Virus record (IMG/VR): IMGVR_UViG_3300024493_000235
Span: 128,001-192,000 of that record
Direction: 5' to 3' (one strand)
DNA length: 64,000 nt
DNA from: a virus
Taxonomy: Duplodnaviria > Caudoviricetes
Positions 27,735 to 60,909 of this stretch are shown here, one piece after another; position 1 is the first letter of the stretch; every line of letters starts with the position of its first letter. The position numbers and the translations under genes were made by a program. Below the pieces are notes generated by a model. It was not told where the DNA came from and did not search any database. It was given only the letters and a program-made list of their open reading frames with translations.

Positions 27735-27770
27735 ATATCACAGAGGGCAAATGCCCTCTGTGATATTTAT
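27735..27770. terminator. Bidirectional terminator
   Basis: ATATCACAGAGGGCA-aa-TGCCCTCTGTGATAT. Confidence 0.85.
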
Positions 27771-30700
27771 TATTTTGTAAGTTCTTCGGCTAAAACTGCC
27801 GCATTCCTTTCATCGATACCGATATCATCATTAGCATCATTCTTTTCTTGAACAACAGAGATGATGTTTTTAACGATATCTTTCTTCGAAGCCGTTATGG
27901 GAGCTGCCAATTCGTCAGCAGTTTTTGCTTTACTTTTGAACTTAACAAAAACCCTTATACAAAAATAAAGAAGTCCTTGTCCTATTCTCCCATTTTTAAA
28001 ATTCTCTTTAGGGGATATGCAATCGTTATACAATTGCTTTATATCGTTCAAATCTTTGAGTGCTTTTTCTCGCAATTCCTGTGACAAATATTTGTTGGTA
28101 TTGAGTTCTTTTTCAAGATTTTCATACATTGCTTTGATTCTTACCCTGTTTGTAGGATGATCATCTAAAGCTGCCAACATCGAAATCGTGCCCGCCATAT
28201 TGAATTGTTGTATGGTGTTTAAAATAGGAATCTTACATACGTCATGAACATTTTGCTCATTTTCATATAGATGATAGTTAAGAGCACTTAAGTCTCCACC
28301 GAGTCCATACATTGTAGCAAAATAGTCTGCGAATTTTTCATCTCTATGTCTTCTGTTAAAATATACACCACGTACTGCCAAATCCAGTAAATAAAACGGG
28401 TCGTATAATATTACAGTTGCAAATGATGTTAAACCCGGAATTGGGATGACAGAGACTATCGATACCAAAACAGATTGAAGACATGAAAGAATAAGTACAA
28501 CAGGATTTACAATAGTATCGGAACCCTGATTTTTTGGTTTTTGAGCTTTACCATCTTTGAATTCTGTTGTATTCATATCTTGGGTTGTCGATGCTTGTAA
28601 TTCTTGAGCAAATTTAAGTCTATCCTTTCCAAGACCAAACTTTTGAAAAAGTCCTACAACAAGAGCAAAAACTTGCTTTGTGGCATTAACAATTTGAAAC
28701 GAAAGGGCGTACGCAAAGAAATCTTTTATAGCTCCTGCTGTAACAGCGAACATCATCGATTGTCTTTGTCTTTGTATAGATTCGTTTTTATAATGCTGAA
28801 ATCCGTGCCCAATTTCGTGAAACATAACTGCAACGATTGTAGTTTCACTTAATTTTGGATCTGTTATAAGACGTATCCCAAGCGAAATTATAAAAAAGAT
28901 ATTATCCGGTTTTTCAAACTTTATGCCATTAGAGGTTTCAATAACTTTTGTAGTTTTTGCAGCTTTAAGTTGTACAGAATTTCCTCTCACCATTGAAAGA
29001 GCGTATGCGTTGTAAATATTTTCTAACCCCAAAATCGTGTCTTCTGTGTTGAATTCTTTTGACAATTCTTTTCCCCAAATTTTGAGAATATTTTTTATTT
29101 TTTCTCGATTTTCTTGTGGAATAGTTCCAGAAGTTGGGAAAAGGGATCTTATTTTTTTGAGGTAATTTATCGAGTTCTTTACGATAGCGGTTTGTCCGAA
29201 ATATCCTTCCATTGTCACAGAACGAAGATTTTCATATTCTACGTCTGTAAGTGGGGATTCAAATGCTACGACACAATCTAACGGATCGACATATTTATCT
29301 TCTTCGACCATTGATAATGGGGATTTACCTTCGATTATTTCAAGAACAGACTTTTCTTCGTCCGGTTTAAACTTAAGAATTTTCTTAATATCAAAAGAAT
29401 TTATCCACGCAGATATTGCATGGAGTCCTATTGAAAGTTTACTAGGTTTCTTTTCGACACTGAGATCTCCTTTTATAAAAATGCCCTTGAAAAACCTGAA
29501 CGCATAATACATAAAAGCGACAGCATGATTATTTTCTTCCGAATTCAGTTTCGGATCCGTACGTACTTTGTACGTTTCATTAACCCTGTTTATGTCTTCA
29601 ATAAGAGCCTTTTTAAGTTTCGGATTTAATGCTTGCGCTTCAAGATCCTTTACAAGATTCTTATGAACGTTCACAATACGGGCATGATCGGTAGGATGAC
29701 CTGAAATATGATTTTCCATTGCAACTAATAATAAAGCTGGCATTTGAGCTACAACATTTACGACTGGTATATTATTCGTTGCTTTGAAGATACCACTTTT
29801 TATAAAATCCGCACTCACATTTATATCACGAAACAATTTTAGAGCTTCTGTAATTTCAGGTCCCATGCCATATGCTGCGGCTATCTCATCTGCCGTTTTT
29901 TCAATTTTCTTTCCAACCCAAACTCCAGGAGGAAGGACACTCATCATAAGTTTTGATATCACATAACCTGGAAATCCGTATAACACAATTTGAAATGCTG
30001 TTGTGAGTATGCATATAATCTGTCTTACTACAACATTTACTGCAAGGGTTAAATCTTCAAATTTTCCAACAACAAAAGATCCTTCAAGAAGTTTATGTCT
30101 TGTCTCCTTTATCTTCGTGCTTTCATCGGTTGTTCTGTCAAAAAGATATCCCCAGAAATTCTTTACGTTTAAAAATATTGCTTGAATGCAATTTATAAAA
30201 ATTAAAAAATTTCTTCCAAAATCACCAACGTTATATGCAGTCTTTTTTACAAAATCCGATTTTTTGAATATCTCGGCGTATTTATCCCAAATCGGTTTAA
30301 CGTAAGAATCTTCACCTGGAGGAATTAAAAGTTCGTCGATTTCTTTATTCTTTTTGTATTCGTCTTTCATGAACTTTACGTTTGAAACAGCTTGAGAACC
30401 TTCTTTGTATGCTGTTTTAAAACTGCGTACAGCAGAATAAACACTTAATGTTGTTTTCACCGCGATATCTATTTTTACCCAAAGACGTTGGACTCCAATA
30501 CTCCATCCAGTCTTGTATTGCAAAAAAGAATGTCCAATTTCATGAAAGTACATCGCTGTCAAATGTTCGGGTTTCACTTGCTTTGCAGCTAACATATTCA
30601 CACTAAGATTGACGATGATATGATGTCCTTCTTTGTGTATATAGCGGATACCATTTTTATCAATTTTTATTTTTGAATACTCCTCCATGGCCTCTTTATC

Positions 30701-31093
30701 GCCATATTTTTCATATTGGGATAAGTCTAATTTGCCGGTAGAAACTGGTATCGAAGAGATTTCTGCCGTATGAGTTATTATGTTCATTGTCACACTTTCG
30801 ACATTAAAATGCTCTTCACTTAGCTCTTCTATTGTCTCCAATTCCCGTCTAATTAAATCGCGAGTTTTATCATCAATAACCGTATAAAGGCGTGCAATAA
30901 GCGCATTTTGTATCCTTGCAAAACACTTTGTAATACGGTTTACAACGGGTAATTTTCCAAAATATTCTTCGTATGAAACTTGCGTGCTATTTAATTTTTC
31001 TATCGCTTTTTCCATCTGAATTGATGTGTCATGAAGGATAAAATTTTGAGGAAAATAGAATCTTTTTGGTATTATCATATCTTCATCGTACAT
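27770..31093 (-). CDS. Tandem two-domain zinc metallopeptidase (M48/HtpX-like zincin), probably virion-associated (1107 aa)
   Basis: Two copies of E.YFG...FHEIGH...E..AD..A..YG.G...HPT...RI, each with hydrophobic helices. AACA-N6-TA at 31118-31129. Confidence 0.85.
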   Translation of the reverse strand: MYDEDMIIPKRFYFPQNFILHDTSIQMEKAIEKLNSTQVSYEEYFGKLPVVNRITKCFARIQNALIARLYTVIDDKTRDLIRRELETIEELSEEHFNVESVTMNIITHTAEISSIPVSTGKLDLSQYEKYGDKEAMEEYSKIKIDKNGIRYIHKEGHHIIVNLSVNMLAAKQVKPEHLTAMYFHEIGHSFLQYKTGWSIGVQRLWVKIDIAVKTTLSVYSAVRSFKTAYKEGSQAVSNVKFMKDEYKKNKEIDELLIPPGEDSYVKPIWDKYAEIFKKSDFVKKTAYNVGDFGRNFLIFINCIQAIFLNVKNFWGYLFDRTTDESTKIKETRHKLLEGSFVVGKFEDLTLAVNVVVRQIICILTTAFQIVLYGFPGYVISKLMMSVLPPGVWVGKKIEKTADEIAAAYGMGPEITEALKLFRDINVSADFIKSGIFKATNNIPVVNVVAQMPALLLVAMENHISGHPTDHARIVNVHKNLVKDLEAQALNPKLKKALIEDINRVNETYKVRTDPKLNSEENNHAVAFMYYAFRFFKGIFIKGDLSVEKKPSKLSIGLHAISAWINSFDIKKILKFKPDEEKSVLEIIEGKSPLSMVEEDKYVDPLDCVVAFESPLTDVEYENLRSVTMEGYFGQTAIVKNSINYLKKIRSLFPTSGTIPQENREKIKNILKIWGKELSKEFNTEDTILGLENIYNAYALSMVRGNSVQLKAAKTTKVIETSNGIKFEKPDNIFFIISLGIRLITDPKLSETTIVAVMFHEIGHGFQHYKNESIQRQRQSMMFAVTAGAIKDFFAYALSFQIVNATKQVFALVVGLFQKFGLGKDRLKFAQELQASTTQDMNTTEFKDGKAQKPKNQGSDTIVNPVVLILSCLQSVLVSIVSVIPIPGLTSFATVILYDPFYLLDLAVRGVYFNRRHRDEKFADYFATMYGLGGDLSALNYHLYENEQNVHDVCKIPILNTIQQFNMAGTISMLAALDDHPTNRVRIKAMYENLEKELNTNKYLSQELREKALKDLNDIKQLYNDCISPKENFKNGRIGQGLLYFCIRVFVKFKSKAKTADELAAPITASKKDIVKNIISVVQEKNDANDDIGIDERNAAVLAEELTK

Positions 31094-31420: not shown

Positions 31421-31598
31421 ACAGTTGTCAACGTTGTTAATATCGATTATCTCCAAGGCTCGCTCAAATTGCTCTTAAGAAGATTTTTTAAAGTTAGTTC
31501 CAACAGTTTCTTTGACCACGTTTAAAGCGCCGAAATTTTATCTTGAAAGGCAATTTAACACTAAAGTATATATAATCTTTGGCGAGGAGGAGATTTTT

Positions 31599-33575
31599 AT
31601 GTCCGAGGAACAAGGATTACCGTTATTACCGACGACGTTACAAAAATCCGAATACTTATCAAAATACGAGATTAAGCCCGAGCTTGAAAAAATGTGGGGC
31701 TTCAATCCTTATCGCATTCTAACAAAAGCCGATAACATTCACAGGTATAACGATACACCAAGTTGGCAATGCGCAAACTGTCACATGATATTTGAATCAT
31801 CTTTTGCCGGTCTTGAAGAAATGTATCCAAAATATTATTGCCCTCATTGTCATGGACAAGAAGATCCTGTACTGCGGACAAAACTTCCGGAAGGCATGAA
31901 AGAAACAAAAGAGCATTATATTAAGATGCTTGCCGCCGAATGGTACATCATGGACGAGATTCAAAATTTTTACGGATATCAGCCGTACGAATTTAAATCA
32001 ATCGTCGTTGGAGAAAAAGTTACACTCGAACATAAATGCTGCGGAACAGTTTTCGAAGCAATTCCAAAAATGATTTTTGAAAATCGAGACTATGTCGATA
32101 TATTCGCTCCGTCAAACGGAATGATGCAAATGCCGTATTGCCCAAGATGCAATAACGTCATGGTCAATGAAAACGCAAATTTTGGCGGAATGAAAATGAT
32201 AGAGCATTTGCATTTCTTTTTCGACAAAATCGGTAAAGAATTTCCGTATGAATTTCCTGAAGACGATTTATTTAGATTTAGAGCGTACGAAGTTCCACTC
32301 GTTATCGCTTGCAAACATTGCAAACACAGATTCCCAATAGCGCCGGAAGAATTATTTAAAATGAGTTTTACAGAATTATCAAAATGCCCGCGATGTCACG
32401 GAGTTAAGAAAACCGGTGACATCGCAAAGGATGCAGTTATGCAAGAACAATTCAATCAAGCAAATGTGCATGTGGATAATGGTGTTCCGATACCTCCTCC
32501 AATTCCCGACAATCAAGACCAGACAAAACATTTGCCACAAGAGGTCACAGTCGAATCAACACCAGAACCGGTTGGAGTTGGAGTGCCTATTCCTGCACAA
32601 AATAACGACGTTCAACCAACTGACGATGTGTCAACAATTCAATCTGAAGAAAACGCCCAAAACGATGAAATAGTTGCAAGGGCTGTACAAGAAGCAAATG
32701 AAGCTGTAAAAGAAATTGAAGGTGTTAACGAGTATGCAGAGTTTCAAGCTGATAGTGCGCCGCTTCCTGTAATTGTTGACCAAAACGGAATATACGATTC
32801 GATACTTAACGAATCAGGATTATCAGTTGAATACGCAGACGACGGCAATGGTATGCTGAATGATGAAGTCGCAGTCACAGCAGAAGAGATGGAACAGGGA
32901 TTCGTATCAACGCTTCCAACAGAAGATGAAGAACCTCAAGAAGACTTGATGCAAAATTCGGAAGATTTTGACAGTAACTATTCGGCAGACTATGTCCCAA
33001 CTGAAGTTGAGACGACAGAAAACGATTTTGCTAATCCTGAAGTGGACCAAAATCAAGAAGATGAATTACTTCAAAATCGAGGTGAGCTTACTCAAGACGA
33101 AGAGATTCCGTTCCAAGAAGATATCACTCAAGAGGATTTAGAATCAACTCGTGAAATTGCAAGCGACCTTTTGGGTGTACCTGAAGGTAACGAAGTTGTT
33201 CCCACTGAAGTTGAATACGCCGAAGAAGAATTTGACGAAAACGAAGGGATACCTGTCGAAATGGACTTAGAAGACGATAACGAATTGACAGATGTTCCGA
33301 CAGAACCGTATAACGGTGAAGAAAACGATTATCAAAATCAGCCAGTTGTATTTGAACAGCCAAACCCCGCCTCATATGCTCAATTTAACGGTGCAAATGC
33401 GAATAGTCAAAACCAAAACAAAGTAGATATTATATCTACAGGTAACTCTAGCAGCGAACAGAGAATTCCCGGTCAAAACGATTTAATGCAAGAAAACAAT
33501 CCTAATGTGAAACCGTATGAACGAACACTCGCCGATGACATACTAGATGCCGCAACCGACGATGTGTATTGGTAA
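31599..33575 (+). CDS. Multi-Zn-ribbon protein with long acidic disordered C-terminus (start MSEEQ)
   Basis: GAGGAGG RBS, TATATATAAT at 31567-31576. Cys pairs CANC..CPHC, HKCC..CPRC, CKHC..CPRC. C-terminal half is E/D/N/Q-rich. Confidence 0.85.
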   Translation: MSEEQGLPLLPTTLQKSEYLSKYEIKPELEKMWGFNPYRILTKADNIHRYNDTPSWQCANCHMIFESSFAGLEEMYPKYYCPHCHGQEDPVLRTKLPEGMKETKEHYIKMLAAEWYIMDEIQNFYGYQPYEFKSIVVGEKVTLEHKCCGTVFEAIPKMIFENRDYVDIFAPSNGMMQMPYCPRCNNVMVNENANFGGMKMIEHLHFFFDKIGKEFPYEFPEDDLFRFRAYEVPLVIACKHCKHRFPIAPEELFKMSFTELSKCPRCHGVKKTGDIAKDAVMQEQFNQANVHVDNGVPIPPPIPDNQDQTKHLPQEVTVESTPEPVGVGVPIPAQNNDVQPTDDVSTIQSEENAQNDEIVARAVQEANEAVKEIEGVNEYAEFQADSAPLPVIVDQNGIYDSILNESGLSVEYADDGNGMLNDEVAVTAEEMEQGFVSTLPTEDEEPQEDLMQNSEDFDSNYSADYVPTEVETTENDFANPEVDQNQEDELLQNRGELTQDEEIPFQEDITQEDLESTREIASDLLGVPEGNEVVPTEVEYAEEEFDENEGIPVEMDLEDDNELTDVPTEPYNGEENDYQNQPVVFEQPNPASYAQFNGANANSQNQNKVDIISTGNSSSEQRIPGQNDLMQENNPNVKPYERTLADDILDAATDDVYW

Positions 33576-33595
33576 TACGTAAAACTCTTCTGGAA

Positions 33596-33790
33596 AACAG
33601 GTTATCTGTGGTATCTCCAAAAACGCTGACTTGACCGGCAGCGTTACACTCAATTAAGCGCGTCATTCATATAACGAGGCTCATGATGTATGAATGCGCC
33701 CACAGACTCGATTGTGGTTGAATGAATAACCACCCCGAAAATAACCAAACGCAGTATAAGCCTGCAATCATTTTTATTAGGAGAAAATTC
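33596..33790 (+). promoter_or_regulatory. Structured intergenic RNA / 5' leader
   Basis: Nested stems GGUUAU/AUAACC, UCUGUGG/CCACAGA, AACGCUG/CAGCGUU, CAUUCAUAUA/UGUAUGAAUG, GUGGUU/AACCAC, GCAG/CUGC. Confidence 0.5.
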
Positions 33791-36019
33791 ATGAGTGCAA
33801 ATACGCAAGATCAGAATGTGCCAATTCCGAATGCAGAGCCGACAATGCCAGCAGCTACTGGACCGGCTAATAGCGCAGGAAAAGCACAAGCTGTACATGT
33901 CGGCTCACATGTAGTAGCGCCGAATCCGTCAGCAGGACCTTCGATACCTGGTGGCGGACAAGCAAAAGGCCAACAAGCGGGAGGTGGACAGGCAAGACAA
34001 CAAGCTAGGCCGCAAACACCTTTCACAACAGGTTTCTCCGGTGCACAACCGAGAAATCAACAGTACCAGCAACAACAGATAAATCCAAAGCTGGTACTCG
34101 ACTTCACAAAGTTGCTTCAGTCGAATTCCGGCGATTCGGGCATGTTCAAAATGACCGAAATCGGAATGCTTCTGAACTCCATTGGGAATCAATACGGACA
34201 AGAAGTGACGGAAGTGGAATGGAGTCAAAGTCTCATGACGTGGAAAGCACGTTTGGGACAGTGTGTTGTTTACTTTGTCACAGGGCTTAAGAATAGGGAC
34301 ACACCTGTATTCAAAATTGTTGAACGTGATATGCCGCTTAATCCGTGGACATATTACGCGTATGGAAATCCCCTTACCCAACTTGTCCTTCCGACAGTGT
34401 GGAACGATCAAGGTGATGTGTGCATTTTGATTTACGAAGATGATTTTGAAATGTGCAGACGTGCCTTGGCCTATCATATCGGCAAATGCGCATTCCCGAG
34501 TTTGATAGGGGAAGGCTATATCTCTGAGGATAAATACTTAGGGCCAACAAGCGGGTTCCGCATTATCGACACGAGAATCGAAACGCACTTCAAAGAAGAG
34601 CTGTTAAGGTTCGTTCAAGAAAACCGATTAACGGCCATGGCAATTCCGGCAACGGAAGTTGTGGCTATGACTGTAAGCCAGCAACAAGGCTATGCAGGTT
34701 CATTCCAGTACGGCGGTCAGAATCCGTTCGGTGCTCCTCCATTTGGTGCGCCTCCAACAGGTTTTGGAAATGCCAATCCGTATGGCGTAGGACAAAACGG
34801 CGGGTTTAATATAAATCAGTCGTTTACAGCTTTACCGTCAACGATCGTTTTAGCCGCTGTGAAGTACCATGTGCGTGATGAGGAAGTTCCGGGATATACG
34901 GGACAGAAATTCCACATTGTGCACATCACAGAAATTATCGAGAATCGCCACTTCGTAGTGGAAGGGTTCTTGAAACATTTCATCATGCACTTTGCTCAAC
35001 AAGGGTATCAGATTTCCCTCGATTTAGATTTGAGTAAACTCAGCCAGCACCTCGTAGAACAGATAAAAATGTTCTTCTACGCAAATCCGCAAGATCCGAA
35101 AAGGTTCCACAATCAAATGGCATATATCCATCCGGATATGAAAACCTTTAACAGGATACACAACGATTATTTAACTCCAAAAACATTTTCTGCATTATTC
35201 CCAGATCTCGCCAAGGTTGACAAATTCCCCAAAGCCCTCCAATCCCAAGAAGACAAAGAGCGTTTTGAGGAATTCAAAAGAAGGGCGGGATACATACCGG
35301 TCTTGAGTGTAGGAGATCAGCATCTCCAGCTCAATCCTGCATGCGTACAATCTCTGTATACGGAGTTGCAACAGCGCAGATGGGCCGTGTATCATGGTAA
35401 AACGCTCGAAGAAGCGATCCAAGAATATGAGGAATCGCTTCAAAATCCTCAAAACAATCCGAACGCAGGACAGGCACAAGGCCAACAAAGGCAACAAGGT
35501 TATCAGAATCCAGGATTTAACAATCCGATGTTTGCCCAACAACCACAGTCTATGGGTTTTGGAATGGGGCCTAACTACGGCTATCAGCAAGGGTATGGAC
35601 AACCTCCTTTCCCAGGTCAGCCTCCGATGGGCGGTTTTGCCGCCCCTCCAGGGTATGGCGGATATCCGCAGCAACAACCATTCGGTCAGCCGCCATTTGG
35701 ACAGCAGCCGATGTATGGACAGATGGGATATGGCGTTCCGCCATACGGACAACCTTACCAAGCGCAACCTGATCCGAATATGAAAGGAAAAGGAAAAGGC
35801 GCCCCTCAACAACAGCAATTCCAGCAGCCATACTACTACCAGCAAGGATATGGACAGCCTTATCCCCAACAACCGCCAGGATATTATGGACCGCCGCAAG
35901 GAATGCAACCTCCGGGATATAATTATTACGGAGGACCTCAACCGCAAGGCCTTGCAGGTGGGGCATTCCCATATCAGCCATCGCCTCAACAACCCGGTGG
36001 TAAAGTGTTCGTGAACTAA
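33791..36019 (+). CDS. Protein with folded core and prion-like Q/P/G/Y low-complexity termini (742 aa, start MSANTQ)
   Basis: AGGAGA RBS. N-terminal Q/G/P/A tract, internal FGAPP repeats, ~190-aa C-terminal YGQP/QQP/PPGY repeats. Strong terminator at 36057-36095. Confidence 0.9.
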   Translation: MSANTQDQNVPIPNAEPTMPAATGPANSAGKAQAVHVGSHVVAPNPSAGPSIPGGGQAKGQQAGGGQARQQARPQTPFTTGFSGAQPRNQQYQQQQINPKLVLDFTKLLQSNSGDSGMFKMTEIGMLLNSIGNQYGQEVTEVEWSQSLMTWKARLGQCVVYFVTGLKNRDTPVFKIVERDMPLNPWTYYAYGNPLTQLVLPTVWNDQGDVCILIYEDDFEMCRRALAYHIGKCAFPSLIGEGYISEDKYLGPTSGFRIIDTRIETHFKEELLRFVQENRLTAMAIPATEVVAMTVSQQQGYAGSFQYGGQNPFGAPPFGAPPTGFGNANPYGVGQNGGFNINQSFTALPSTIVLAAVKYHVRDEEVPGYTGQKFHIVHITEIIENRHFVVEGFLKHFIMHFAQQGYQISLDLDLSKLSQHLVEQIKMFFYANPQDPKRFHNQMAYIHPDMKTFNRIHNDYLTPKTFSALFPDLAKVDKFPKALQSQEDKERFEEFKRRAGYIPVLSVGDQHLQLNPACVQSLYTELQQRRWAVYHGKTLEEAIQEYEESLQNPQNNPNAGQAQGQQRQQGYQNPGFNNPMFAQQPQSMGFGMGPNYGYQQGYGQPPFPGQPPMGGFAAPPGYGGYPQQQPFGQPPFGQQPMYGQMGYGVPPYGQPYQAQPDPNMKGKGKGAPQQQQFQQPYYYQQGYGQPYPQQPPGYYGPPQGMQPPGYNYYGGPQPQGLAGGAFPYQPSPQQPGGKVFVN

Positions 36020-36056
36020 AAGAGAAAGCAAAGGAAAACTTTATTAATACGAATGG

Positions 36057-36095
36057 AATGCTGGGAGATTTATTGCTCCCAGCATTTTTTATTTT
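36057..36095 (+). terminator. Intrinsic terminator
   Basis: AATGCTGGGAG...CTCCCAGCATT plus T-tract. Confidence 0.85.
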
Positions 36096-36188: not shown

Positions 36189-36887
36189 ATGGAACAAAAT
36201 CAAGACACCGAAGTTACAGGAAGTACGAAGAAACGTCTTACTGTGAAATCAACACAAAAAACATCTCATATCGCGAAAAAGGTATATGCGCCTTTTGAGA
36301 TTATGAGACAGATGAAGAATCCAAGTAACTATGATGTAGTTATAATTACTTTGGAAAGATACGAAGATGATGACGCTGTGTATGCGAGAGCCGCAAGGTC
36401 ATTAGTACACGACCTTCCTGGAGAAAATTTAAGAAAAGCAAAAACCTTCACCCTCAACAGGTCGTATGAAGGCGATTACAATGACGACATACTTTCTGTC
36501 GATACATCCGATTTTAAAGTAACCGAATGGTATCCGCCTATGATGAGTACGGCGTTTGATATGATAAGAAAATCGTTGGAAAATATAACAAAGAAATCAA
36601 ACGATTTTCTAGCGATACGAAATATCGAAGGCTTTCCGATAAATGACGCGTTTTGTGTTACAGTAAGTAACAATGAAGAACCTGTGTTTTTCGCCCTTCG
36701 TACGAGAACCCAACTTGTCTTTTTATACGACACGTTCCATACCTGCAAGAAGAAAAATATTTCTGCAGACTCAACTGTCGTTCTTGAATGTCAAAAACTA
36801 TTCCTTGCTTTCTTAAGCGAGGTGACAAAGATAGAAACTGCATACTCGACCTTCGCGCTACGAAATGCGTTAGGGTTACTAAACTGA
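36189..36887 (+). CDS. Hypothetical protein (232 aa)
   Basis: AAGGAG RBS, long ORF. Confidence 0.8.
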   Translation: MEQNQDTEVTGSTKKRLTVKSTQKTSHIAKKVYAPFEIMRQMKNPSNYDVVIITLERYEDDDAVYARAARSLVHDLPGENLRKAKTFTLNRSYEGDYNDDILSVDTSDFKVTEWYPPMMSTAFDMIRKSLENITKKSNDFLAIRNIEGFPINDAFCVTVSNNEEPVFFALRTRTQLVFLYDTFHTCKKKNISADSTVVLECQKLFLAFLSEVTKIETAYSTFALRNALGLLN

Positions 36888-36935: not shown

Positions 36936-38444
36936 ATGGAACTTGCCATTTTTAACATGGAATCTCAGTATCAACAGGATATGAAAACGGGTGTGGGCAT
37001 CGAAATTGACACACCCGTTCCTGTTACTAAGAAGGAAATCATCAGGAATCCTCGTGGCATTTACTCTTCGTTATTTGGCGGAGATATCTCGGATACCGAT
37101 GAATTGCAAAAAAGATATCAGTGTTCTTGTGGAGAAAAAACTGGAAAGTTCCACGAGAGATCAGTCTGTGAGAAATGCCACACCCCGGTCACGTTTCAAG
37201 ACAACGAACTTGAAAAAACAGGTTGGATGAGCCTGTGCGACCCGTACGTATTAATCACTCCGAGGCTTTTTCGGTTCATAGAAAAAGTTTTAAAACCCAA
37301 ACGTCTTGATGAAATGCTAAAGTTCGATCATCGTTTTGATGCTAACGGCGTTATCATTTATGATACCACAGTCGATGCAAAGAATCCGTATGCAAATATC
37401 GGTATAAATGAATTTGCAAGACGCTTCGATGAAATACTTGAAGTGATGGCGGATAAAACAAAGGAACTCGAAATAGCTTTTATTAAGAAGCACAGAGGAG
37501 AAATATTTACTCGTAGAATTCCTGTTTTGAATTTGCTTTTACGTCCGGTTGTATTAATCAGTAATACTACTTTTAATTACGACCCTATCAATATGTATTA
37601 TGCGGAGATGATGAGTCATGTGCATTATATTAATAACAATATTAACAATGAGCACACGCAATCATCGCTTCAGATACTGTACGAACTGCAACGTAAATGG
37701 GTTTCCCTTGATGCTGAAATCATAAAGCAAAAAATAAACGGGAAAAAACATACGATAAGACAATTTGTTCTTGGAAGTAGGGTTAACTTTTCTGCTCGCC
37801 ATGTCGTCGTTCCAAATTTGGACACGGTCAAAATAGATTCTCTTAAAATTCCCTATTATACATTCTGTGAATTTTATAAATTTCACATTATGAATATCTA
37901 CAAAAAGATATATAGGGTTACGGTAAACGAACTTAATGATAGGTGGTACACACTTGTCATGACTCGGGATCCGTCTATTTTGCATATTATCAATATTCTT
38001 ATTAAGAGAACCAAAGGCGGTCTTAGGATGTATGTTAATCGTCCTCCGACTATCGCACTGGGTTCAATTCAAGTCTTTAAAGTGACCGCAATAAACGAAG
38101 ACTTCGACGATTTAACGGCATCTCTTCCGCTTTGTATTTTACCTTTGATGAACTGTGACTTTGATGGCGATTGTCTTTCGTTTATACCTCTTATTGATTC
38201 TATTTTTGCAGATAAAATGCAAAAATATTTTTCATCACAGAGGTTGGTTGTAAATCCATCGACAGGGTTATACAATAGACGAGTGGGACTCATTAAGGAC
38301 CAGTTAGTCGGGTTGTATTCGTTCTGCAACGATTCGTACAGTCCGCAGGACTTCGCAAGCGAAGATGACAAGTTCACGATTATAACTCCGGAAATTTTAC
38401 ATGCCAGGGATATGTGGTACAAACGTAACCGGAGAGCTGCCTAA
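36936..38444 (+). CDS. rpoC: Phage multisubunit RNA polymerase beta' N-terminal subunit, likely non-virion RNAP (502 aa)
   Basis: Zn finger CSCG..CEKC, GSRVNFSARHVVVP, NRPPTI, catalytic NCDFDGD. Preceded by TATACATAAT at 36896-36905. Confidence 0.93.
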   Translation: MELAIFNMESQYQQDMKTGVGIEIDTPVPVTKKEIIRNPRGIYSSLFGGDISDTDELQKRYQCSCGEKTGKFHERSVCEKCHTPVTFQDNELEKTGWMSLCDPYVLITPRLFRFIEKVLKPKRLDEMLKFDHRFDANGVIIYDTTVDAKNPYANIGINEFARRFDEILEVMADKTKELEIAFIKKHRGEIFTRRIPVLNLLLRPVVLISNTTFNYDPINMYYAEMMSHVHYINNNINNEHTQSSLQILYELQRKWVSLDAEIIKQKINGKKHTIRQFVLGSRVNFSARHVVVPNLDTVKIDSLKIPYYTFCEFYKFHIMNIYKKIYRVTVNELNDRWYTLVMTRDPSILHIINILIKRTKGGLRMYVNRPPTIALGSIQVFKVTAINEDFDDLTASLPLCILPLMNCDFDGDCLSFIPLIDSIFADKMQKYFSSQRLVVNPSTGLYNRRVGLIKDQLVGLYSFCNDSYSPQDFASEDDKFTIITPEILHARDMWYKRNRRAA

Positions 38445-38461: not shown

Positions 38462-39028
38462 ATGCATAAAAAATACACAATTTCTTTCGATGCCGATAAA
38501 ATACAATCTAAAGCGAACGCTGGCAAAACAATCGGATATTATGCAAAATGCTTAAACAACGTTTTGCAGGATTTACATTTCCCAAAGAAAACTTCACATG
38601 CGGAAAAGAGTGAACAAAAAATTTCTCGTACCGCTTTAAACGACGTAAAGAAAAACGTAGATGCGTTACTTGAGATTAAATATCCAAAACGTATAACAAT
38701 CGAAATATTTCAAGAGATGCAGGATAACATTGTATCTTCAATAGTGCAGCTTATGAAAGTATATGCAAATCTTGAAAACGATTACACGCTTGACAGTTAT
38801 TCGAAAAATGAGTACAACGATCCATTATCTAAAGTCTATAACGTTCATGCTGACGGTCAGACAAAAATGATCGAAGAAGCTTCAATGCATTCTCCTGAAC
38901 CGTATCATAATCCTGAAGATGAAGACTTCGACGATTATGATGACGATGACGAAGACTTTGATGAAGATCTTGATGATCCTGTTGATGAAGACAGAGACAT
39001 CGACGATGACGACTTTGACGATGATTAA
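38462..39028 (+). CDS. Hypothetical protein with very acidic C-terminal tail (188 aa)
   Basis: GAGG RBS, last ~37 residues mostly D/E, terminator at 39037-39072. Confidence 0.85.
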   Translation: MHKKYTISFDADKIQSKANAGKTIGYYAKCLNNVLQDLHFPKKTSHAEKSEQKISRTALNDVKKNVDALLEIKYPKRITIEIFQEMQDNIVSSIVQLMKVYANLENDYTLDSYSKNEYNDPLSKVYNVHADGQTKMIEEASMHSPEPYHNPEDEDFDDYDDDDEDFDEDLDDPVDEDRDIDDDDFDDD

Positions 39029-39036
39029 TTTAAATC

Positions 39037-39072
39037 TGTAGAGGGAGAAATCCCTCTACATAATTTTTATTT
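39037..39072 (+). terminator. Intrinsic terminator
   Basis: TGTAGAGGGA-gaaa-TCCCTCTACA followed by T-rich sequence. Confidence 0.8.
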
Positions 39073-39115
39073 GAGAATAACAGAAAAACATTTGAATAGA
39101 CAAAAGGAGGAATTT

Positions 39116-39598
39116 ATGAATCCGTTATTCCAATCGTGCATATCAAATATACGATACAAAGCAGATTTTGAAGGAATAAATGATCCTGTAAAGTTTCATT
39201 CAAAACACGCATGCAGTTTTGATATTCAATCTGCTAAAGATTACGACATTTGGTTTGGAAAAGTAGTCATTGTTGAGACAGGACTTCATCTTGAGATACC
39301 GTTGGGATTTGAAGCGTTAGTTCGTGGAAGATCCGGTCTTGCATCAAAGGGAATTCAACCATATGGAGGTATAGTTGACAGCGATTATACAGGGGAGATA
39401 AAAGTACTTTTATCTTGCTGCAACTTGGAGTTTACACCAGAGAAACCTTTTCACATTGTAAAAGGCGATAGAGTCGCTCAATGTGCATTTAAGAAAGTAT
39501 GTTTTTTAAGTGATACAAGTGAAATGACTTTTGAAAAAGTTGATGTATTAAAAGAAACCGAAAGAGGCGAAAACGGTTTAGGTTCCACAGGGAACTAA
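39116..39598 (+). CDS. dut: Trimeric dUTPase (start MNPLFQ)
   Basis: Motifs RGRSGLA, GIVDSDYTGEI, GDRVAQ, ERGENGLGSTG. AAGGAGG RBS, AACA-N6-TA at 39087-39098. Confidence 0.95.
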   Translation: MNPLFQSCISNIRYKADFEGINDPVKFHSKHACSFDIQSAKDYDIWFGKVVIVETGLHLEIPLGFEALVRGRSGLASKGIQPYGGIVDSDYTGEIKVLLSCCNLEFTPEKPFHIVKGDRVAQCAFKKVCFLSDTSEMTFEKVDVLKETERGENGLGSTGN

Positions 39599-39614
39599 AA
39601 GGAGATACAACTGT

Positions 39615-42113
39615 ATGAAAAATGATACACATCTTTTGATGATACAAAAATCAAACGATAAAATCTTTACTCTCGATAAGGAATTCATTGAGAGTTATGA
39701 AAATAAAAACCCCAAAAACGGAATGGACATATTAGGTCTTGTTACCTTTTATCGCACATACTCTCGTATGCTTGAAAAAGAAGAACGAAACGAGCATTGG
39801 TTTGAATGTGTTCGCCGTGTCGTAGAAGGAGTCATGAATATTCAAAAAGAATATTGTATGAATCATCGTCGCAAATGGTCTGATATAAAGGCACAGAGAA
39901 TAGCCCAGATTATGTACGACAAAATGTTTAACTTTAAAATGATTCCCCCAGGAAGAGGATTGTGGATTATGGGTTCTTCTTTTATTAAAGAAAGAGGAGC
40001 TGCGGCATTAAATAACTGCGCATATATTTCTACAGAAAATATAGGAGATCCGAAAGAATCTTCAATGTGTTTTGCATGGACTATGGATATGCTCATGTTA
40101 GGATCAGGCGTTTCCTCTGATACAAGGGGTGCCGGGAAAGTCGTCATAAAGCAACCAAAACCAACGGTGAAAGTATATACAATTCCTGACTCAAGAGAAG
40201 GTTGGGTTAACTCATTATGGATGCTCATGGAAAGTTATTTTCAAGGAACTGAGTCTGTTGATTTTAATTATAGTCTAATACGTGAAAGAGGACTTCCGAT
40301 AAAAGGATTTGGAGGAACTGCTTCTGGCCCTGATCCTTTGAAGATATTGCACAACTTCATCCGAGAGTTATTTAATAAAAGAATTGGTTTAACACTATCA
40401 TCAGTTGATATTGTTGATATCATGAATAACATCGGACGCTGCGTTGTAAGTGGGAACGTGCGCAGATCAAGTTGTCTCATGTTAGGCGATCCTGACGATA
40501 CCGAATTTGTTACGATGAAGGATCCCGTTCTTCATAAGGAAGAACTTATAAGTCACAGATGGGCAAGTAACAATTCAGTGAATGCTGTTCCAGGAAAAAT
40601 AAGATACGAAGATTACATCGATTCTATTTGTGCGAATGGAGAACCAGGTTTTGTGTGGCTTTCTAATATTCGTAAACACGGTAGAATGATGGATCCAGTG
40701 GATGACGTTGATATTAACGTCGGAAACTTAAATCCGTGCTTTACAGGTGATATGAAACTTCTTACTAAAGATGGATACGTGACATTTGATCAACTTGATG
40801 ATATAGGTTGCGAAGTTGATATCGTTCGTAAAGACGGTTCTATAGGCCCCGCGCAAATAATATACACAGGAAAGAAAATCATCGCTGAAATATATGTCGC
40901 CGGAGTTGAAGAGCCGCTTAAATGTACGCACGATCATGTATGGATGCTTTCTAATGGAACTGAATGCAAAGCAATAAACTTGCAGGGAAAGACTTTAAAG
41001 AATTATTCATATATGAAAACACGGCCGATTGTTACCAAAGTCGTTCTTAAGAACGATGAAGAGGATGTATTTGATTTTAAAGAACCTAAATTCCATTGGG
41101 GTATTGTTAATAACTTTTTTGCACATAACTGCGGAGAGATTTGTCTTGAATCTGGCGGCATGTGCAATTTAGTTTCTGTAATTCCGGCATATCATGATAC
41201 ATATGATGAGTTTGAAGAATCTCTTAAATATGCATATATGTATGCAAAAACGGTAACACTTCTTGATACCGGATGGCCAAATACTGACGAGATTATACGT
41301 AATACTCGTCGTATTGGTATTTCTCTGTCTGGAGTTATTGACGCTTTTGAAAAACACGGAAGAGATAAAATGTTAAAGTGGTGTCGAGACGGATACAATT
41401 ATGTGCGTAAACTCGACAAAGAATATTCGGAACACTGGCTTCATATTCCAGAATCATCCAGAATTTCTGCACTGAAGCCCGACGGCACAACATCGCTATT
41501 GACAGGAAGTTCTCCTGGAATACATTACCCGTTCGATAAGTATTATATTAGGAGAGTTAGAATAGATTCGAGCTCCCCCATTTGCAAGATACTTACAGAA
41601 CACGGCTATCATTATGAAGTCGAAAGAGAAAACTTTGTTTTCGAATTTCCTGTAATGAAAGAGCATTTTGGAAAATCGGTACAAACGTGTACAGTCGAAG
41701 ATCAATTTCGTAACGCTTCTGACATGCAAGAGATGTGGGCTGATAATTCTGTTTCTATTACGATAACTTTCAGACATCAGATTAAAAGAAACGAAAAAGG
41801 AGAACCTATCGATGAAAACAATAATGTCATTACGTCTGGAAATCCTAAAGATTACATCGTCCTTGAGAGCGATAAAGACGAAGTCGTTCGGTGCTTGTAC
41901 AAATATGAAAATAGATTAAAGGCTGTATCTTTACTTCCTGACGATCCGTTTGCATACGCTCTTATGCCGTTTGAGTCTATCACAAAAGAAAAGTTTGATA
42001 GAATGTGGGAGAAAATAACTCCTATTAATTTCAAAGAAATTAACATCTATCAGAAACCGGAAGTAATCGAACGATTCTGCACAAAAGATTCGTGCGATAT
42101 TATAAAACCATAA
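39615..42113 (+). CDS. nrdJ: Class II (adenosylcobalamin-dependent, monomeric-type) ribonucleotide reductase containing an intein
   Basis: PPGRGLW, LNNCAY, DSREGW, GGTASGP, VVSGNVRRS, GEPG, NP[intein]CGEI, CNL, KPDGTTSLL, C-terminal CTKDSC. Confidence 0.93.
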   Translation: MKNDTHLLMIQKSNDKIFTLDKEFIESYENKNPKNGMDILGLVTFYRTYSRMLEKEERNEHWFECVRRVVEGVMNIQKEYCMNHRRKWSDIKAQRIAQIMYDKMFNFKMIPPGRGLWIMGSSFIKERGAAALNNCAYISTENIGDPKESSMCFAWTMDMLMLGSGVSSDTRGAGKVVIKQPKPTVKVYTIPDSREGWVNSLWMLMESYFQGTESVDFNYSLIRERGLPIKGFGGTASGPDPLKILHNFIRELFNKRIGLTLSSVDIVDIMNNIGRCVVSGNVRRSSCLMLGDPDDTEFVTMKDPVLHKEELISHRWASNNSVNAVPGKIRYEDYIDSICANGEPGFVWLSNIRKHGRMMDPVDDVDINVGNLNPCFTGDMKLLTKDGYVTFDQLDDIGCEVDIVRKDGSIGPAQIIYTGKKIIAEIYVAGVEEPLKCTHDHVWMLSNGTECKAINLQGKTLKNYSYMKTRPIVTKVVLKNDEEDVFDFKEPKFHWGIVNNFFAHNCGEICLESGGMCNLVSVIPAYHDTYDEFEESLKYAYMYAKTVTLLDTGWPNTDEIIRNTRRIGISLSGVIDAFEKHGRDKMLKWCRDGYNYVRKLDKEYSEHWLHIPESSRISALKPDGTTSLLTGSSPGIHYPFDKYYIRRVRIDSSSPICKILTEHGYHYEVERENFVFEFPVMKEHFGKSVQTCTVEDQFRNASDMQEMWADNSVSITITFRHQIKRNEKGEPIDENNNVITSGNPKDYIVLESDKDEVVRCLYKYENRLKAVSLLPDDPFAYALMPFESITKEKFDRMWEKITPINFKEINIYQKPEVIERFCTKDSCDIIKP
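40737..41129 (+). mobile_element. Mini-intein (131 aa, no homing endonuclease) in the RNR NP/CGE active-site motif
   Basis: Starts CFTGDMKLLTKDG, block B CTHDHVW, block F DVFDF, ends FFAHN followed by Cys+1. Confidence 0.92.
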
Positions 42114-42128
42114 CGAAAGGAGAAAATT

Positions 42129-42899
42129 ATGGGACCAGAAGATTTGGGGGAGATGCTTTACGAAGGAAAAGCAAAAAAATTGTATGCCGTTCAAAATTGG
42201 CCAGAACTTGTTGTCATAGAATATAAGGATGATGCAACAGCCAATAACGGAGAGAAGAAAGGACAGATTGCGAACAAAGGAAAAATAAATAATGCGATTG
42301 CATCAAAATTATTTGAAGTCCTTAAAGCCGAAGGCATTCCAACACATTTTGTCCGTAAACGTACTGATACCGAAATGGTGTGTAAAAAAGTCGAGATCAT
42401 AAAACTTGAAGTCATCATCCGAAATCTTATCGCCGGTTCCATGGCAAAACGTCTTGGAATTAAAGAGGGGACGGCTCCCGAAACGACAATCTTTGAGCTT
42501 TCGTACAAAGACGATTCGCTTGGCGATCCTCTTATTAATGATTATCACGCCGTCGGAATTGGAGCTGCGACCTTCGAAGAAATTGAGACCATTAAGACTT
42601 ATGCGTTCAAAATCAATAGGATACTCAAGAGATTCTTTTCTAAACGAAGAGTGAACGTAGTCGATTTCAAACTTGAATTTGGACGTGTTATTGATGAGAA
42701 TGGGGAAGTAACACGTGAGATTGTTCTCGCCGACGAGATATCTCCTGATACTTGTCGGTTCTGGGATCAAAAGACAAATGAAAAACTCGACAAAGATCGG
42801 TTCCGTCGGGATCTTGGCGGCATTGAAGAAGCATATAACGAAATTGAGGCAAGGATCCTTATGAATGACGACGAGGTATCGCGTATATGGAAGACATAA
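42129..42899 (+). CDS. purC: SAICAR synthetase (auxiliary metabolic gene)
   Basis: [59 protein letters not shown]. Confidence 0.96.
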
Positions 42900-43463: not shown

Positions 43464-44432
43464 GTGAAATTATATTCTGAAACCTTCACATATAAACAAT
43501 ATGATGAAAATTTTCACATAAGCTCAATGCTTAAAGACCTGAAAAATCATATTACAATTGTCGATAAAGAAGTTTTTTCATCTAAAGTGTTAGAAATTGA
43601 CAAAATGGTAAATATCTCTATAAAGAAATCCGTAATGAAAGATTTCGATGAGAAAGCCATTGTATTTTTTGTTACAAACGACGATTTTCCATTACCTTCT
43701 ACAGTGCCCGTATTTATAGTTCCTGATAAAACCTCAAATTTAAGATACAGAGCAATTGTCAATATCACAGGCCACAGTAAAATCTCAAAAGACGAATTTG
43801 GAAAAATTGAAAGTGTGGAAATCGAGAATAAGAAAATGTTTACACTTCTTGCTACAGGATGGATTTACAGAAAACTGTTTCTCGATGATTCAGCGTTCTT
43901 TATTAATTCGGGCATTGTAAAGGTAGCTGCAAATATGTACGCAAGATTGTGCTACAAAATTCTTGATAAGAAATGGTCCATTGGTGTCGACTTCAAAAGA
44001 GTCGATGTTGCAATGGTTATATTTGCTTATTTTTTTGCATATTATGTCGCAGGGGAACCTAAAAGGGCGTTGGATATAGCATCTGCTATTGATGCCGTTA
44101 CAAATTTAAATGAAGGTGTTAAGGTTGCTCGTGACATAATAAAGCATGTAAAGGATCCAAAGCATCCGTTTAAGGATTTCAGGGATTGTATCGAACTTTT
44201 GAATAAATCCATTAGTGAGATTGTCCCTATCGATGCTCTTACATTCATAGGGGTCTTTGCACAACATTGGCAAGGTTCAACTGTGCCAGGAATTGATTAT
44301 CTTCCCTACTTTGTGATGACAATCGTTTCTTCATTTATAGGAGCCGGACTTGCGAGGGATACGGCCGTACTTCAAGTTGTACGAAAAGATGCCGATACTT
44401 TCATTAAAATGCTAAGTGAAGTATACAAATAG
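43464..44432 (+). CDS. Putative virion protein (322 aa)
   Basis: AGGAGG RBS, GTG start, AACA-N6-TA at 43423-43434. First gene of a structural-looking operon. Confidence 0.8.
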   Translation: MKLYSETFTYKQYDENFHISSMLKDLKNHITIVDKEVFSSKVLEIDKMVNISIKKSVMKDFDEKAIVFFVTNDDFPLPSTVPVFIVPDKTSNLRYRAIVNITGHSKISKDEFGKIESVEIENKKMFTLLATGWIYRKLFLDDSAFFINSGIVKVAANMYARLCYKILDKKWSIGVDFKRVDVAMVIFAYFFAYYVAGEPKRALDIASAIDAVTNLNEGVKVARDIIKHVKDPKHPFKDFRDCIELLNKSISEIVPIDALTFIGVFAQHWQGSTVPGIDYLPYFVMTIVSSFIGAGLARDTAVLQVVRKDADTFIKMLSEVYK

Positions 44433-59721: not shown

Positions 59722-60909
59722 ATGAACACAATTACAATCGGAATCGGAGCCGCAGGATCTGCCATTGCTGAAGTCGCAGTCCGTTTAGGATTTGGGCAAG
59801 CAATGGCTATGAATTCAAGTTCCGAAGATTTAGACGCCGTAAAATTAATCGATCCGGCAAGACGAATTAAACTGCGCACACTAGATGGCGCAGCGAAAAA
59901 CAGAAACTCAGCATTAGCTGCGTTCAAAACCGAATACCAAAACTTTTTGACCAATGTAAACAACGCCTTTAACGCTACAGGTACCATAGTAGTTCCTGAT
60001 CTTATTTTCGTTGTCGCCTCTGGTGGAGGCGGGACAGGCTCAGGTATTCTTCCTGTGGCCAGCAGAATATTGCGAAAAACATATCCTGACAGCTTTGTAA
60101 TTCCTGTCATTGTTCTTCCGTCCCTTTATGAGAGGGGAATTGCGCAGCAAAATGCGATTGACTGTCTGCGCGAACTCGGCCCGACACAGGATGAAAAGAA
60201 AGATCCTTCATGGAAGGATTTTACAATCATTCTGGCCGATAACACACGAGAACAAACCGACTTGTTGGAAAAGAAGTATGAACTTATAAATTCCAACATA
60301 GTTGGCAACATACAAAGACTCGTCTCAACCACAAAAACTTCCCGTATTTCAAATATGGATATTGCCGACAGAAAAGCTATGTTCTCAGACCCTGGAATCA
60401 TGGTAATAGGAAGCGCGACTGTAAAGAACGATGAGGAATCTCCGATACGCGCCGCGATAAAAAGAGCGATAGAAGCTACGGCAATGTCCGCAGATATAAC
60501 CGCCAGTGTAAAGCGCGTTGCAATTCAAGTTGAAGCCTCAACAAGCCTCTATACCGAGAAAAACATCGTCGACGCTCAAAGCATGTTTAAAAATGCCGCA
60601 GGTGTCTTCGAAGGCTATTACGGTTTGGATGAACCGGCAGTCGCTACAGAAGGAAAGACAGGCGACGGTAAAGTGCTTGTAGCATTCTCCGGCGCAAGAC
60701 TTCCTGAAAAGGTGATAAGGGAACGTGAAGCAATCATTGAAGATACATTCAAAGTTCCTACAGAAAGTGCCGTCGAAATTGCCAAAGGAAACAAAGATCT
60801 TAAATCGGCTTGGAGTTCTTCGACAAAATCGACTCCGGCAGCGGCGACAGAACCTGCCGCACAAAACTTTGACGATATCTTTGCGGGTATTGAAGGAGAA
60901 AGGACTTAA
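59722..60909 (+). CDS. phuZ: Tubulin/FtsZ-family GTPase (PhuZ/TubZ-like, 395 aa)
   Basis: IGIGAAGS, DGAAKN, signature GGGGTGSG, T7 loop NMDIAD, flexible tail ending NFDDIFAGI. TATACATAAT at 59655-59664. Confidence 0.9.
   Translation: MNTITIGIGAAGSAIAEVAVRLGFGQAMAMNSSSEDLDAVKLIDPARRIKLRTLDGAAKNRNSALAAFKTEYQNFLTNVNNAFNATGTIVVPDLIFVVASGGGGTGSGILPVASRILRKTYPDSFVIPVIVLPSLYERGIAQQNAIDCLRELGPTQDEKKDPSWKDFTIILADNTREQTDLLEKKYELINSNIVGNIQRLVSTTKTSRISNMDIADRKAMFSDPGIMVIGSATVKNDEESPIRAAIKRAIEATAMSADITASVKRVAIQVEASTSLYTEKNIVDAQSMFKNAAGVFEGYYGLDEPAVATEGKTGDGKVLVAFSGARLPEKVIREREAIIEDTFKVPTESAVEIAKGNKDLKSAWSSSTKSTPAAATEPAAQNFDDIFAGIEGERT

Follow-up and report, generated by a model that had tools for sequence, protein, structure and literature searches.

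A predicted chimallin-type fold with long low-complexity tails, encoded near an RNA polymerase gene in a tubulin-encoding jumbo phage

Chimallin (ChmA, or PhuN), the shell protein of the phage nucleus, consists of an orphan alpha/beta domain followed by a GNAT-like domain (Laughlin et al., PMC9365700), an arrangement described for PhuN as the fusion of a nuclease-like and an acetyltransferase-like domain (Nieweglowska et al., PMC9938867). In the chimallin lattice, protomers are linked by three segments, one N-terminal (NTS) and two C-terminal (CTS1 and CTS2), which dock on their neighbours (PMC9365700); the last 12 residues of PhuN occupy a groove, and in PhuN of PhiPA3 a large flexible lattice loop, residues 272-291 of the acetyltransferase-like domain, lies at the lattice corners and contributes to the linkage as well (PMC9938867). 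The virion RNA polymerase (vRNAP) transcribes chmA and the genes of the non-virion RNA polymerase (nvRNAP) first (PMC12908238). Searches for nucleus-forming phages use chimallin hidden Markov models or PSI-BLAST (PMC12625630; Prichard et al.). The AR9 group is held not to encode chimallin (PMC13282480; Prichard et al.), and jumbo phages without chimallin homologues, the AR9-like ones included, are considered in reviews unlikely to form a protein nucleus (PMC13282480). Here we describe P0001, a 742-residue protein encoded in a 64,000-nucleotide stretch of DNA from an uncultured phage (the window; bases 128001-192000 of the 268,442-bp IMG/VR virus record IMGVR_UViG_3300024493_000235), which is present in a termite-gut metagenome. 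The best explanation of the predicted structure is that P0001 is a very divergent relative of chimallin, and from its fold, anatomy and position we put the probability that it forms a shell or scaffold at about 0.5.

The open reading frame (ORF) of P0001 is free of stops and occurs once in the record, whose completeness is estimated at ~91%. We favour the ATG at 33791 as its start because an AGGAG ribosome-binding site lies 8 nt 5' of it and homologues likewise begin MSA...; a longer frame from the in-frame ATG at 33722 was rejected on the same grounds. The sequence-only reading of this DNA had described a folded-looking core of ~450 residues set between a Q/G/P/A-rich N-terminus and a ~190-residue, nearly acid-free Y/G/Q/P tail, with an internal FG (phenylalanine-glycine) loop. 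The frame translates over its full length, residues ~98-552 are modelled as folded by AlphaFold2 (AF2), and the composition counts given below agree with that description. The parts of the protein are the following, where pLDDT is the predicted local distance difference test score.

33791-36019, plus strand: P0001, 742 aa, predicted chimallin-fold protein (translation, homologues, AF2, Foldseek)
33881-33910, plus strand: conserved N-terminal peptide, aa 31-40, R-x5-V-x2-H, within the Q/A/G/P tail (family alignment)
34082-34681, plus strand: N-terminal alpha/beta domain of the core, aa 98-297, predicted nuclease-like topology (AF2 model, structure alignment)
34682-34834, plus strand: uncharged FG/G/Q/N loop, aa 298-348, inserted in the GNAT-like domain (pLDDT <50, composition)
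34835-35446, plus strand: remainder of the predicted GNAT/Mom-like C-terminal domain, aa 349-552
35447-36016, plus strand: Q/P/G/Y low-complexity C-tail, aa 553-742 (composition, pLDDT <50)
35738-35800, plus strand: mid-tail patch, aa 650-670, PY...KGKGKG (partly conserved columns)
35954-36016, plus strand: conserved C-terminal peptide, aa 722-742, AGGAFP, a variable spacer and a (Y/F)(I/V)P-type end (family alignment)

An exhaustive phmmer search of the core against 1.84 billion representatives returned 13 other clusters only, all metagenomic and with 25-43% identity; the family alignment comprises 14 sequences, nine of them full-length. On this alignment AF2 modelled residues 95-560 with a mean pLDDT of 82.6 and a predicted template modelling (TM) score of 0.79, and only the loop fell below 50. 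When the model of the core was compared with the PDB by Foldseek, the top eight entries were all chimallin/PhuN (probability 0.96-0.99, E ~1e-3, TM-score 0.34-0.38), and GNAT acetyltransferases, including the AtaT/TacT toxins, ranked below them. Foldseek against BFVD also returned the predicted chimallins of Eowyn, D3, Noxifer, RSF1 and pTD1, with E values of 8e-5 and weaker. The predicted model comprises a small alpha/beta nuclease-like domain and a GNAT-like domain in a single rigid arrangement, as in chimallin; the former runs helix, three strands, helices and then a strand, and aligns to the N-terminal domain of chimallin within the whole-core structure alignment. We regard it as highly probable, on the strength of this model, that the core adopts the two-domain fold of chimallin and of the Hef-like endonucleases discussed below. 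The family alignment contains no invariant acidic or His residue in the N-terminal domain, nor any other invariant residue there, and in the family consensus we found neither the catalytic motif of the nuclease-like domain nor that of the GNAT/Mom-like domain; chimallin is alike in this respect. Because neither motif was found, P0001 is most likely a structural protein.

At the level of sequence, similarity to chimallin was undetectable, which sets P0001 apart from the described chimallins. The latter include phiKZ gp54, 201phi2-1 gp105, PhiPA3 gp53 and the Goslar chimallin (PF25677, phrog_4795; PDB entries 7SQQ-7SQV, 8FNE and 8IGG). P0001 had no match in Pfam or PHROGs, and none by tblastn and megablast among 50,697 phage records; BLASTP against phiKZ gp54 gave low-complexity noise only. 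The profile built from the 14-member core alignment matched nothing among all PDB sequences (hmmsearch) and, in the full genomes of AR9, phiR1-37 and phiKZ, gave only noise in phiKZ (E 0.07). With hhalign, the core reached a probability of 0.3% against a 19-sequence chimallin profile and of 0.4% against a Hef-like profile, and core/Hef-like, core/chimallin and chimallin/Hef-like comparisons all stayed <1%, relaxed settings included. A 51-column alignment of core and Hef-like profile that recurred at the C-terminus was not significant and is not counted. A feature search of the ESM Atlas with P0001 yielded no usable match, and the model of the protein in the Atlas is poor (pLDDT 0.35). A canonical chimallin was also not found in the record with phiKZ gp54, PF25677 and phrog_4795, which is a weak negative because the genome-search controls likewise found nothing; in the protein scan, phiKZ gp54 scores 1122 bits on PF25677.

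Of the 742 residues, ~340 lie in uncharged sequence of low complexity in which aromatic or Met 'stickers' abound. The N-tail (aa 1-97) is 18% Q, 15% A, 13% G and 12% P; the 51-residue loop (aa 298-348) is 24% G and 12% each F, Q, N and P, with no charged residue; and the C-tail, counted over the 194 residues 549-742, is 23% Q, 20% P, 20% G and 11% Y (74% together), with one acidic and five basic residues. A G/F-rich loop is found in all family members, and the tails of homologues, 150-200 residues long, are equally uncharged, with a composition that drifts from Y/P in P0001 to M, N or F elsewhere. A recent origin of the C-tail from DNA tandem repeats was rejected, and the minus-strand ORFs that overlap it are by-products of its biased codons. 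P0001 thus contains a long uncharged Q/N/G/S/Y/P-rich region predicted to be disordered, as prion-like proteins do, and its tail (Q/G/P/Y) and loop (FG/G), uncharged and with aromatics spaced along them, resemble prion-like/FET-type domains and FG-nucleoporin repeats. This likeness is compositional only, without homology, and the low-complexity parts of P0001 differ in that they flank a folded core of lattice type and end in conserved peptides.

Conservation is higher in the core than in the tails, where it falls mainly on short separate peptides at the ends of flexible linkers. All nine full-length members have the same order: N-peptide, Q/N/G linker, N-terminal domain, G/F loop, C-terminal domain, tail, PY...KG.KG patch and AGGAFP end. 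In the N-peptide, V and H are retained in eight of the nine and R in seven (P0001 has K31, V36 and H40), while the flanking residues are unconserved; the peptide is a candidate counterpart of the chimallin NTS and may dock as the latter does. The mid-tail patch, the sole basic cluster of the C-tail, has partly conserved P-Y and G...G columns with K or Q around them, and is a candidate CTS1-like element, if a weak feature. Of the nine full-length members, 7-9 keep the AGGAFP columns, and most of the 14 sequences have a YIP-type end, P0001 itself ending in VFVN; this peptide, too, may dock on the core. P0001 therefore resembles chimallin/PhuN in having a flexible N-tail, an internal loop and a C-tail, with conserved end peptides on both tails. 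Its disordered loop lies in the same domain as residues 272-291 of PhuN and roughly at the same place, as estimated from alignment ranges and not residue by residue. What differs is the scale, since the tails and loop of P0001 are 5-20 times longer than those of chimallin and consist of uncharged Q/G/P/Y/F low-complexity sequence.

The surroundings of the gene provide a second line of comparison; the features concerned are these.

27770-31093, minus strand: M48-like protein, 1107 aa, divergent upstream neighbour (weak Peptidase_M48 match; phrog_2767)
31567-31576, plus strand: putative early-type promoter motif TATATATAAT heading the two-gene unit (motif enrichment)
31599-33575, plus strand: partner gene, 658 aa, three zinc-ribbon/treble-clef units followed by a polyacidic disordered region (phrog_559, Pfam, composition)
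33576-33790, plus strand: 215-nt spacer/leader with no promoter motif and no plus-strand terminator
36055-36088, plus strand: strong intrinsic terminator closing the unit (13-bp stem, six G-C pairs, then a T run)
36936-38444, plus strand: RNA polymerase beta' N-terminal subunit (beta'-N), non-virion-type (Pfam RNA_pol_Rpb1_2; phrog_2987, 1e-65)
59722-60909, plus strand: tubulin/FtsZ-family protein, PhuZ/TubZ-like (Pfam Tubulin 4.4e-12, Tubulin_2 1e-9, weak PhuZ PHROG)

In phiKZ, gp54 (chimallin) is followed by gp55 (beta'-N), and the P0001 gene likewise lies near a gene for nvRNAP beta'-N. As the sequence-only reading had counted, the two are separated by a single gene (36189-36887, 232 aa); an assignment of this gene as RNase H was rejected, the RNase H protein at that place in relative L003 not being homologous. 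The order holds in every relative with readable context, down to 26% identity: beta'-N is found downstream in five of them (L003, L012, L013, L015 and L004), at a spacing of 0-5 genes, and is directly adjacent to the P0001 homologue in the most divergent. In L003 and L013 the full order of M48-like giant (minus strand), zinc-ribbon/acidic gene, P0001 homologue and then beta'-N is present, in L013 with beta'-N directly adjacent, and in L015 a single protein combines the products of the first two plus-strand genes. The M48-like homologues occupy the same position (L003 4074-7382, L013 3409-7188, L015 6365-9655); they are proteins of 1100-1260 aa with internal repeats, always divergent beside the zinc-ribbon/chimallin-fold pair. 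Like the phages that encode chimallin, this one also has a tubulin gene besides its own RNA polymerase beta'-N subunit; the tubulin-family assignment bears out the earlier suggestion of a PhuZ-like tubulin, the PhuZ PHROG match itself being weak. Two further observations concern the stretch 3' of beta'-N. Directly behind it lies a gene for a 188-aa protein (38462-39028, plus strand) ending in a run of ~40 D/E residues, a second polyacidic tail nearby, and then a nucleotide-metabolism block (39071-42899, plus strand) that encodes dUTPase, a ribonucleotide reductase of class II (B12-type) and a SAICAR synthase resembling PurC. A phage with its own dUTPase is less likely to have a deoxyuridine genome like that of PBS1.

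The zinc-ribbon/polyacidic gene and the P0001 gene form an apparent two-gene operon. The motif at its head belongs to a set, TATATATMAT, that occurs seven times in the window against 0.76 expected (~nine-fold enriched), on the plus strand only and just upstream of genes (1541, 8333, 12230, 22361, 23859, 31180 and 31567). Variants lie 5' of beta'-N (36896) and of the tubulin gene (59655), and a relaxed form occurs 87 times genome-wide. The motif resembles the annotated early promoters of AR9, AAATATATATTAT, and TATATATAAT is accordingly a putative promoter, from which P0001 would probably be expressed early, as chimallin is; variants before both the P0001 unit and beta'-N fit the published rule on the first transcripts of vRNAP (PMC12908238). 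The partner starts at ATG 31599 behind a GGAGGAG ribosome-binding site. Its zinc-ribbon units span ~aa 1-290 and match positions 154-306 of phrog_559 (2.7e-9 and 1e-10), with weak matches to Zn_ribbon_8, HypA and DUF7836, and its final 381 residues contain 95 D+E against 9 K+R. Homologues stand upstream of the P0001 homologue in L003 and L013; chimallin has no such linked zinc-ribbon/polyacidic partner gene. The partner ends in an acidic-hydrophobic DD(I/L)-type peptide, which recurs in homologues on L003, L013 and L004. The spacer between the two genes folds at -53.6 kcal/mol (z -2.98), better than shuffled sequence, and may be a regulatory or processing leader; one metatranscriptome contig (33399-33816) crosses it.

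Two termite-gut metatranscriptome runs (two samples, one study) contain 22-30% of the sampled words of a 7-kb query. Contigs of one run tile much of the P0001 gene (33399-33816, 34755-35471 and 35649-36029) and those of the other cover it in four pieces, while the zinc-ribbon gene, beta'-N and other neighbours in a 19-kb stretch are sparsely covered. The contigs are probably RNA, because carried-over DNA would give even coverage. The runs were chosen with this same stretch, and the contig-free parts of the 19 kb are not evidence of silence; as to expression, the contigs are a weak hint. At position 35705 one RNA contig carries T instead of the C of the DNA, at a depth of 17 and 57 nt from the end of the contig, probably through strain variation or error.

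As to the phage itself, beta'-N is closest to that of the Bacillus phages BpSp, Goe21, AR9 and PBS1 (32-34%), followed by phiR1-37 and Staphylococcus jumbo phages and then by phiKZ-like phages (24-26%). Among 248 ORFs, 43 match AR9 (5365 bits in total) and 17 match phiKZ (1319 bits), at identities of only 21-38%, and matches of further ORFs to AR9 and phiKZ fall within the RNA polymerase gene regions of those phages. The genome was not found to share the chimallivirus core gene set, for which phiKZ alone represented the Chimalliviridae. By these sequence comparisons this is a jumbo phage with a multisubunit RNA polymerase, nearer to the AR9 group than to phiKZ; its earlier assignment to the AR9/PBS1 type was roughly right. 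AR9 and phiR1-37 themselves have no homologue of the P0001 family when their full genomes are searched with its profile, and nothing comparable upstream of beta'-N.

The structural neighbours of the core extend beyond chimallin. In BFVD it is proteins of 400-560 aa labelled 'endonuclease-like' or 'homing endonuclease' that match best (E 7e-9 to 1e-5, the top one over ~416 columns); they come from PA5oct, Campylobacter CP21 and uncultured myoviruses, and chimallins rank next. An ESM Atlas search returned viral clusters with DUF723, DUF4379 treble-clef, Mom, ROS_MUCR or DUF7487 (TM 0.50-0.55), in alignments of 289-322 residues that span model positions 6-424 and thus both domains. Domains of this set mark free-standing homing endonucleases of the Hef-like (EDxHD) type. 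A search with AR9 gp264 found >2,400 clusters of this very large family, in which Pfam gives the order zinc fingers, REase_MTES_1575 and Mom-like GNAT, and whose alignment shows invariant E320, D322 and H340, among others, at the EDxHD nuclease site. AR9 gp264 (L006 11574-13271, minus strand) and its family have the Mom-like GNAT after a Vsr-like nuclease, a domain order as in chimallin/PhuN; we did not find this parallel drawn in the papers searched. The core of P0001 resembles these proteins (AR9 gp264, phrog_559/3339; Pfam DUF4379, DUF723, REase_MTES_1575 and Mom) in having a nuclease-type and then a Mom/GNAT-type domain, and the zinc-ribbon module provides a link by sequence: the relative P0014 (1150 aa) is a single polypeptide that runs from a zinc-ribbon module through an acidic linker to the chimallin-fold core, in the Hef-like order, and the partner encoded upstream of P0001 is homologous to the N-terminus of P0014 (BLASTP 3e-43). 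These structure matches, and the Hef zinc-ribbon homology of a partner that is fused to the core in P0014, suggest that chimallin-type proteins derive from Hef-like endonucleases. In our reading the P0001 family would be a domesticated, catalytically dead descendant of Hef-like proteins, and chimallin, with the same order of nuclease-like and GNAT-like domains, may share this origin; a toxin-antitoxin origin of chimallin has been proposed elsewhere (PMC9365700, PMC12908238). Neither the Hef-like neighbours nor the zinc-ribbon/polyacidic partner had figured in the sequence-only reading.

We suggest that P0001 would be made early and would self-assemble, forming the boundary of a phage replication compartment or a scaffold for it, with its cores packing as chimallin cores do. 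The three elements that link protomers, namely N-tail, internal loop and C-tail, are greatly lengthened here; the end peptides would attach to adjacent cores, while spacers and loop of low complexity would supply elastic, cohesive contacts of an FG-nucleoporin-like or prion-like kind. We speculate that linkers and loop could fill or gate openings in the manner of FG nucleoporins, or else seed assembly by condensation, that the phage tubulin could position the compartment, and that the zinc-ribbon/polyacidic protein may be a functional partner in nucleation on DNA, chaperoning or capping. The analysis itself establishes the predicted fold, the anatomy of the protein, its conservation and synteny, and its presence in two RNA libraries; early timing, assembly, docking and compartment are what we infer.

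Several observations weigh against a shell or scaffold of this kind. The TM-scores of the core to chimallins are modest (0.34-0.43), likeness at the sequence level was not found by Pfam, PHROG, hmmsearch against PDB sequences or hhalign, and the core is matched no less well by predicted Hef-like endonucleases, which are not shell proteins, than by chimallins, so that the fold alone is no proof of shell function. The full-length AF2 monomer leaves N-tail, loop and C-tail undocked, with pLDDT <50 in the tails, although such a monomer would neither support nor exclude docking in trans. The linkers of P0001 measure ~55-170 residues compared with the 8-10 of chimallin, the genome sits nearer to phages of the AR9 type, in which a nucleus is not known, and the ranking of genes by RNA contigs is not rigorous. 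The divergent shell protein that the sequence-only reading had offered as one option gains from the predicted two-domain fold and from a synteny with beta'-N that extends to 26% identity. Two results would have told against that option, namely an unrelated enzyme or single-stranded DNA-binding protein fold in the core and a loss of synteny across relatives; no unrelated fold explains the core, and the gene order is conserved.

It could also be that P0001 is a domesticated Hef-like (EDxHD) homing endonuclease that has lost catalysis and plays a role other than in a shell, its likeness to chimallin reflecting shared ancestry only; with its zinc-ribbon partner such a protein could, for example, bind or organise DNA or counter host defence. 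We take this possibility seriously and still think it unlikely. The endonuclease-like proteins are indeed the best predicted-structure neighbours in BFVD, the Atlas clusters cover both domains, the order of zinc fingers, REase_MTES_1575 and Mom-like domain is the same, and the upstream ORF, whose counterpart in P0014 is joined to the core, resembles phrog_559 in its zinc-ribbon part. However, that zinc-ribbon part is all that matches, the core itself having no profile similarity to phrog_559/3339, DUF723 or Mom, and the invariant E, D and H of the EDxHD motif have no conserved counterpart in the P0001 family. The gene is moreover single-copy and syntenic, whereas Hef-like genes are multi-copy and mobile, and its long low-complexity tails and loop, with terminal peptides of chimallin/PhuN type, are not part of the Hef-like consensus.

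A condensate scaffold, in which the Q/G/P/Y tails and the FG loop drive a liquid-like, membraneless replication factory without an ordered lattice and the core adds valency or recruits clients, appears quite unlikely to us. Nearly half the protein has the sticker-bearing, uncharged composition that this would call for, its low-complexity character is kept across the family despite the drift in composition, AF2 predicts disorder for tails and loop, and the co-encoded partner carries a polyacidic region of ~380 aa; yet the best-conserved parts of the tails are the short end peptides, which argues for specific docking rather than composition-driven cohesion, and the core outconserves the tails and has the predicted fold of a lattice-forming protein. 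Low-complexity proteins are common among those that jumbo phages package, and virion-type neighbours are present (e.g. phrog_21032 at 43464-44432), so a virion or other late structural protein, of the inner body or ejected, could in principle lie near the RNA polymerase gene by chance. We hold this to be very improbable, given the early-type promoter motif at the head of the unit, the lack of any match of P0001 to a virion-protein family, and a predicted fold that is chimallin/Hef-like. A divergent chimallin relative acting as shell or scaffold is thus the reading we prefer.

Taken at its widest, that reading would have a jumbo lineage outside the Chimalliviridae, with multisubunit RNA polymerase and tubulin, build a nucleus-like compartment from a chimallin-fold protein whose tails and corner loop have turned into extended FG/prion-like domains, so that an ordered lattice would be combined with a cohesive, selective phase; the Hef zinc-ribbon link would then show that shell proteins were recruited from homing endonucleases and not from a toxin-antitoxin pair. 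We offer this wider view tentatively, with more doubt than belief. In the papers searched we found no description of a chimallin-fold protein outside the Chimalliviridae or of a Hef-like origin of chimallin; new here are the zinc-ribbon partner in its fused and split forms, the Hef-like link, the RNA evidence from termite gut and the placement nearer to AR9.

If P0001 is what we suggest, a chimallin-fold protein invisible to searches with chimallin models or PSI-BLAST would widen the known range of phage nuclei, here at a syntenic locus in a phage that encodes tubulin and an RNA polymerase of its own and that occurs in gut metatranscriptomes. It would also serve as a natural experiment in making a selective barrier out of an ordered lattice and low-complexity sequence, and would give chimallin a concrete, testable origin from a Hef-like nuclease and Mom/GNAT proteins, with the P0001 family, in its fused and split zinc-ribbon forms, as a candidate intermediate on the way to chimallin. 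Phages outside the known nucleus-forming family may thus build a related compartment in a different way.

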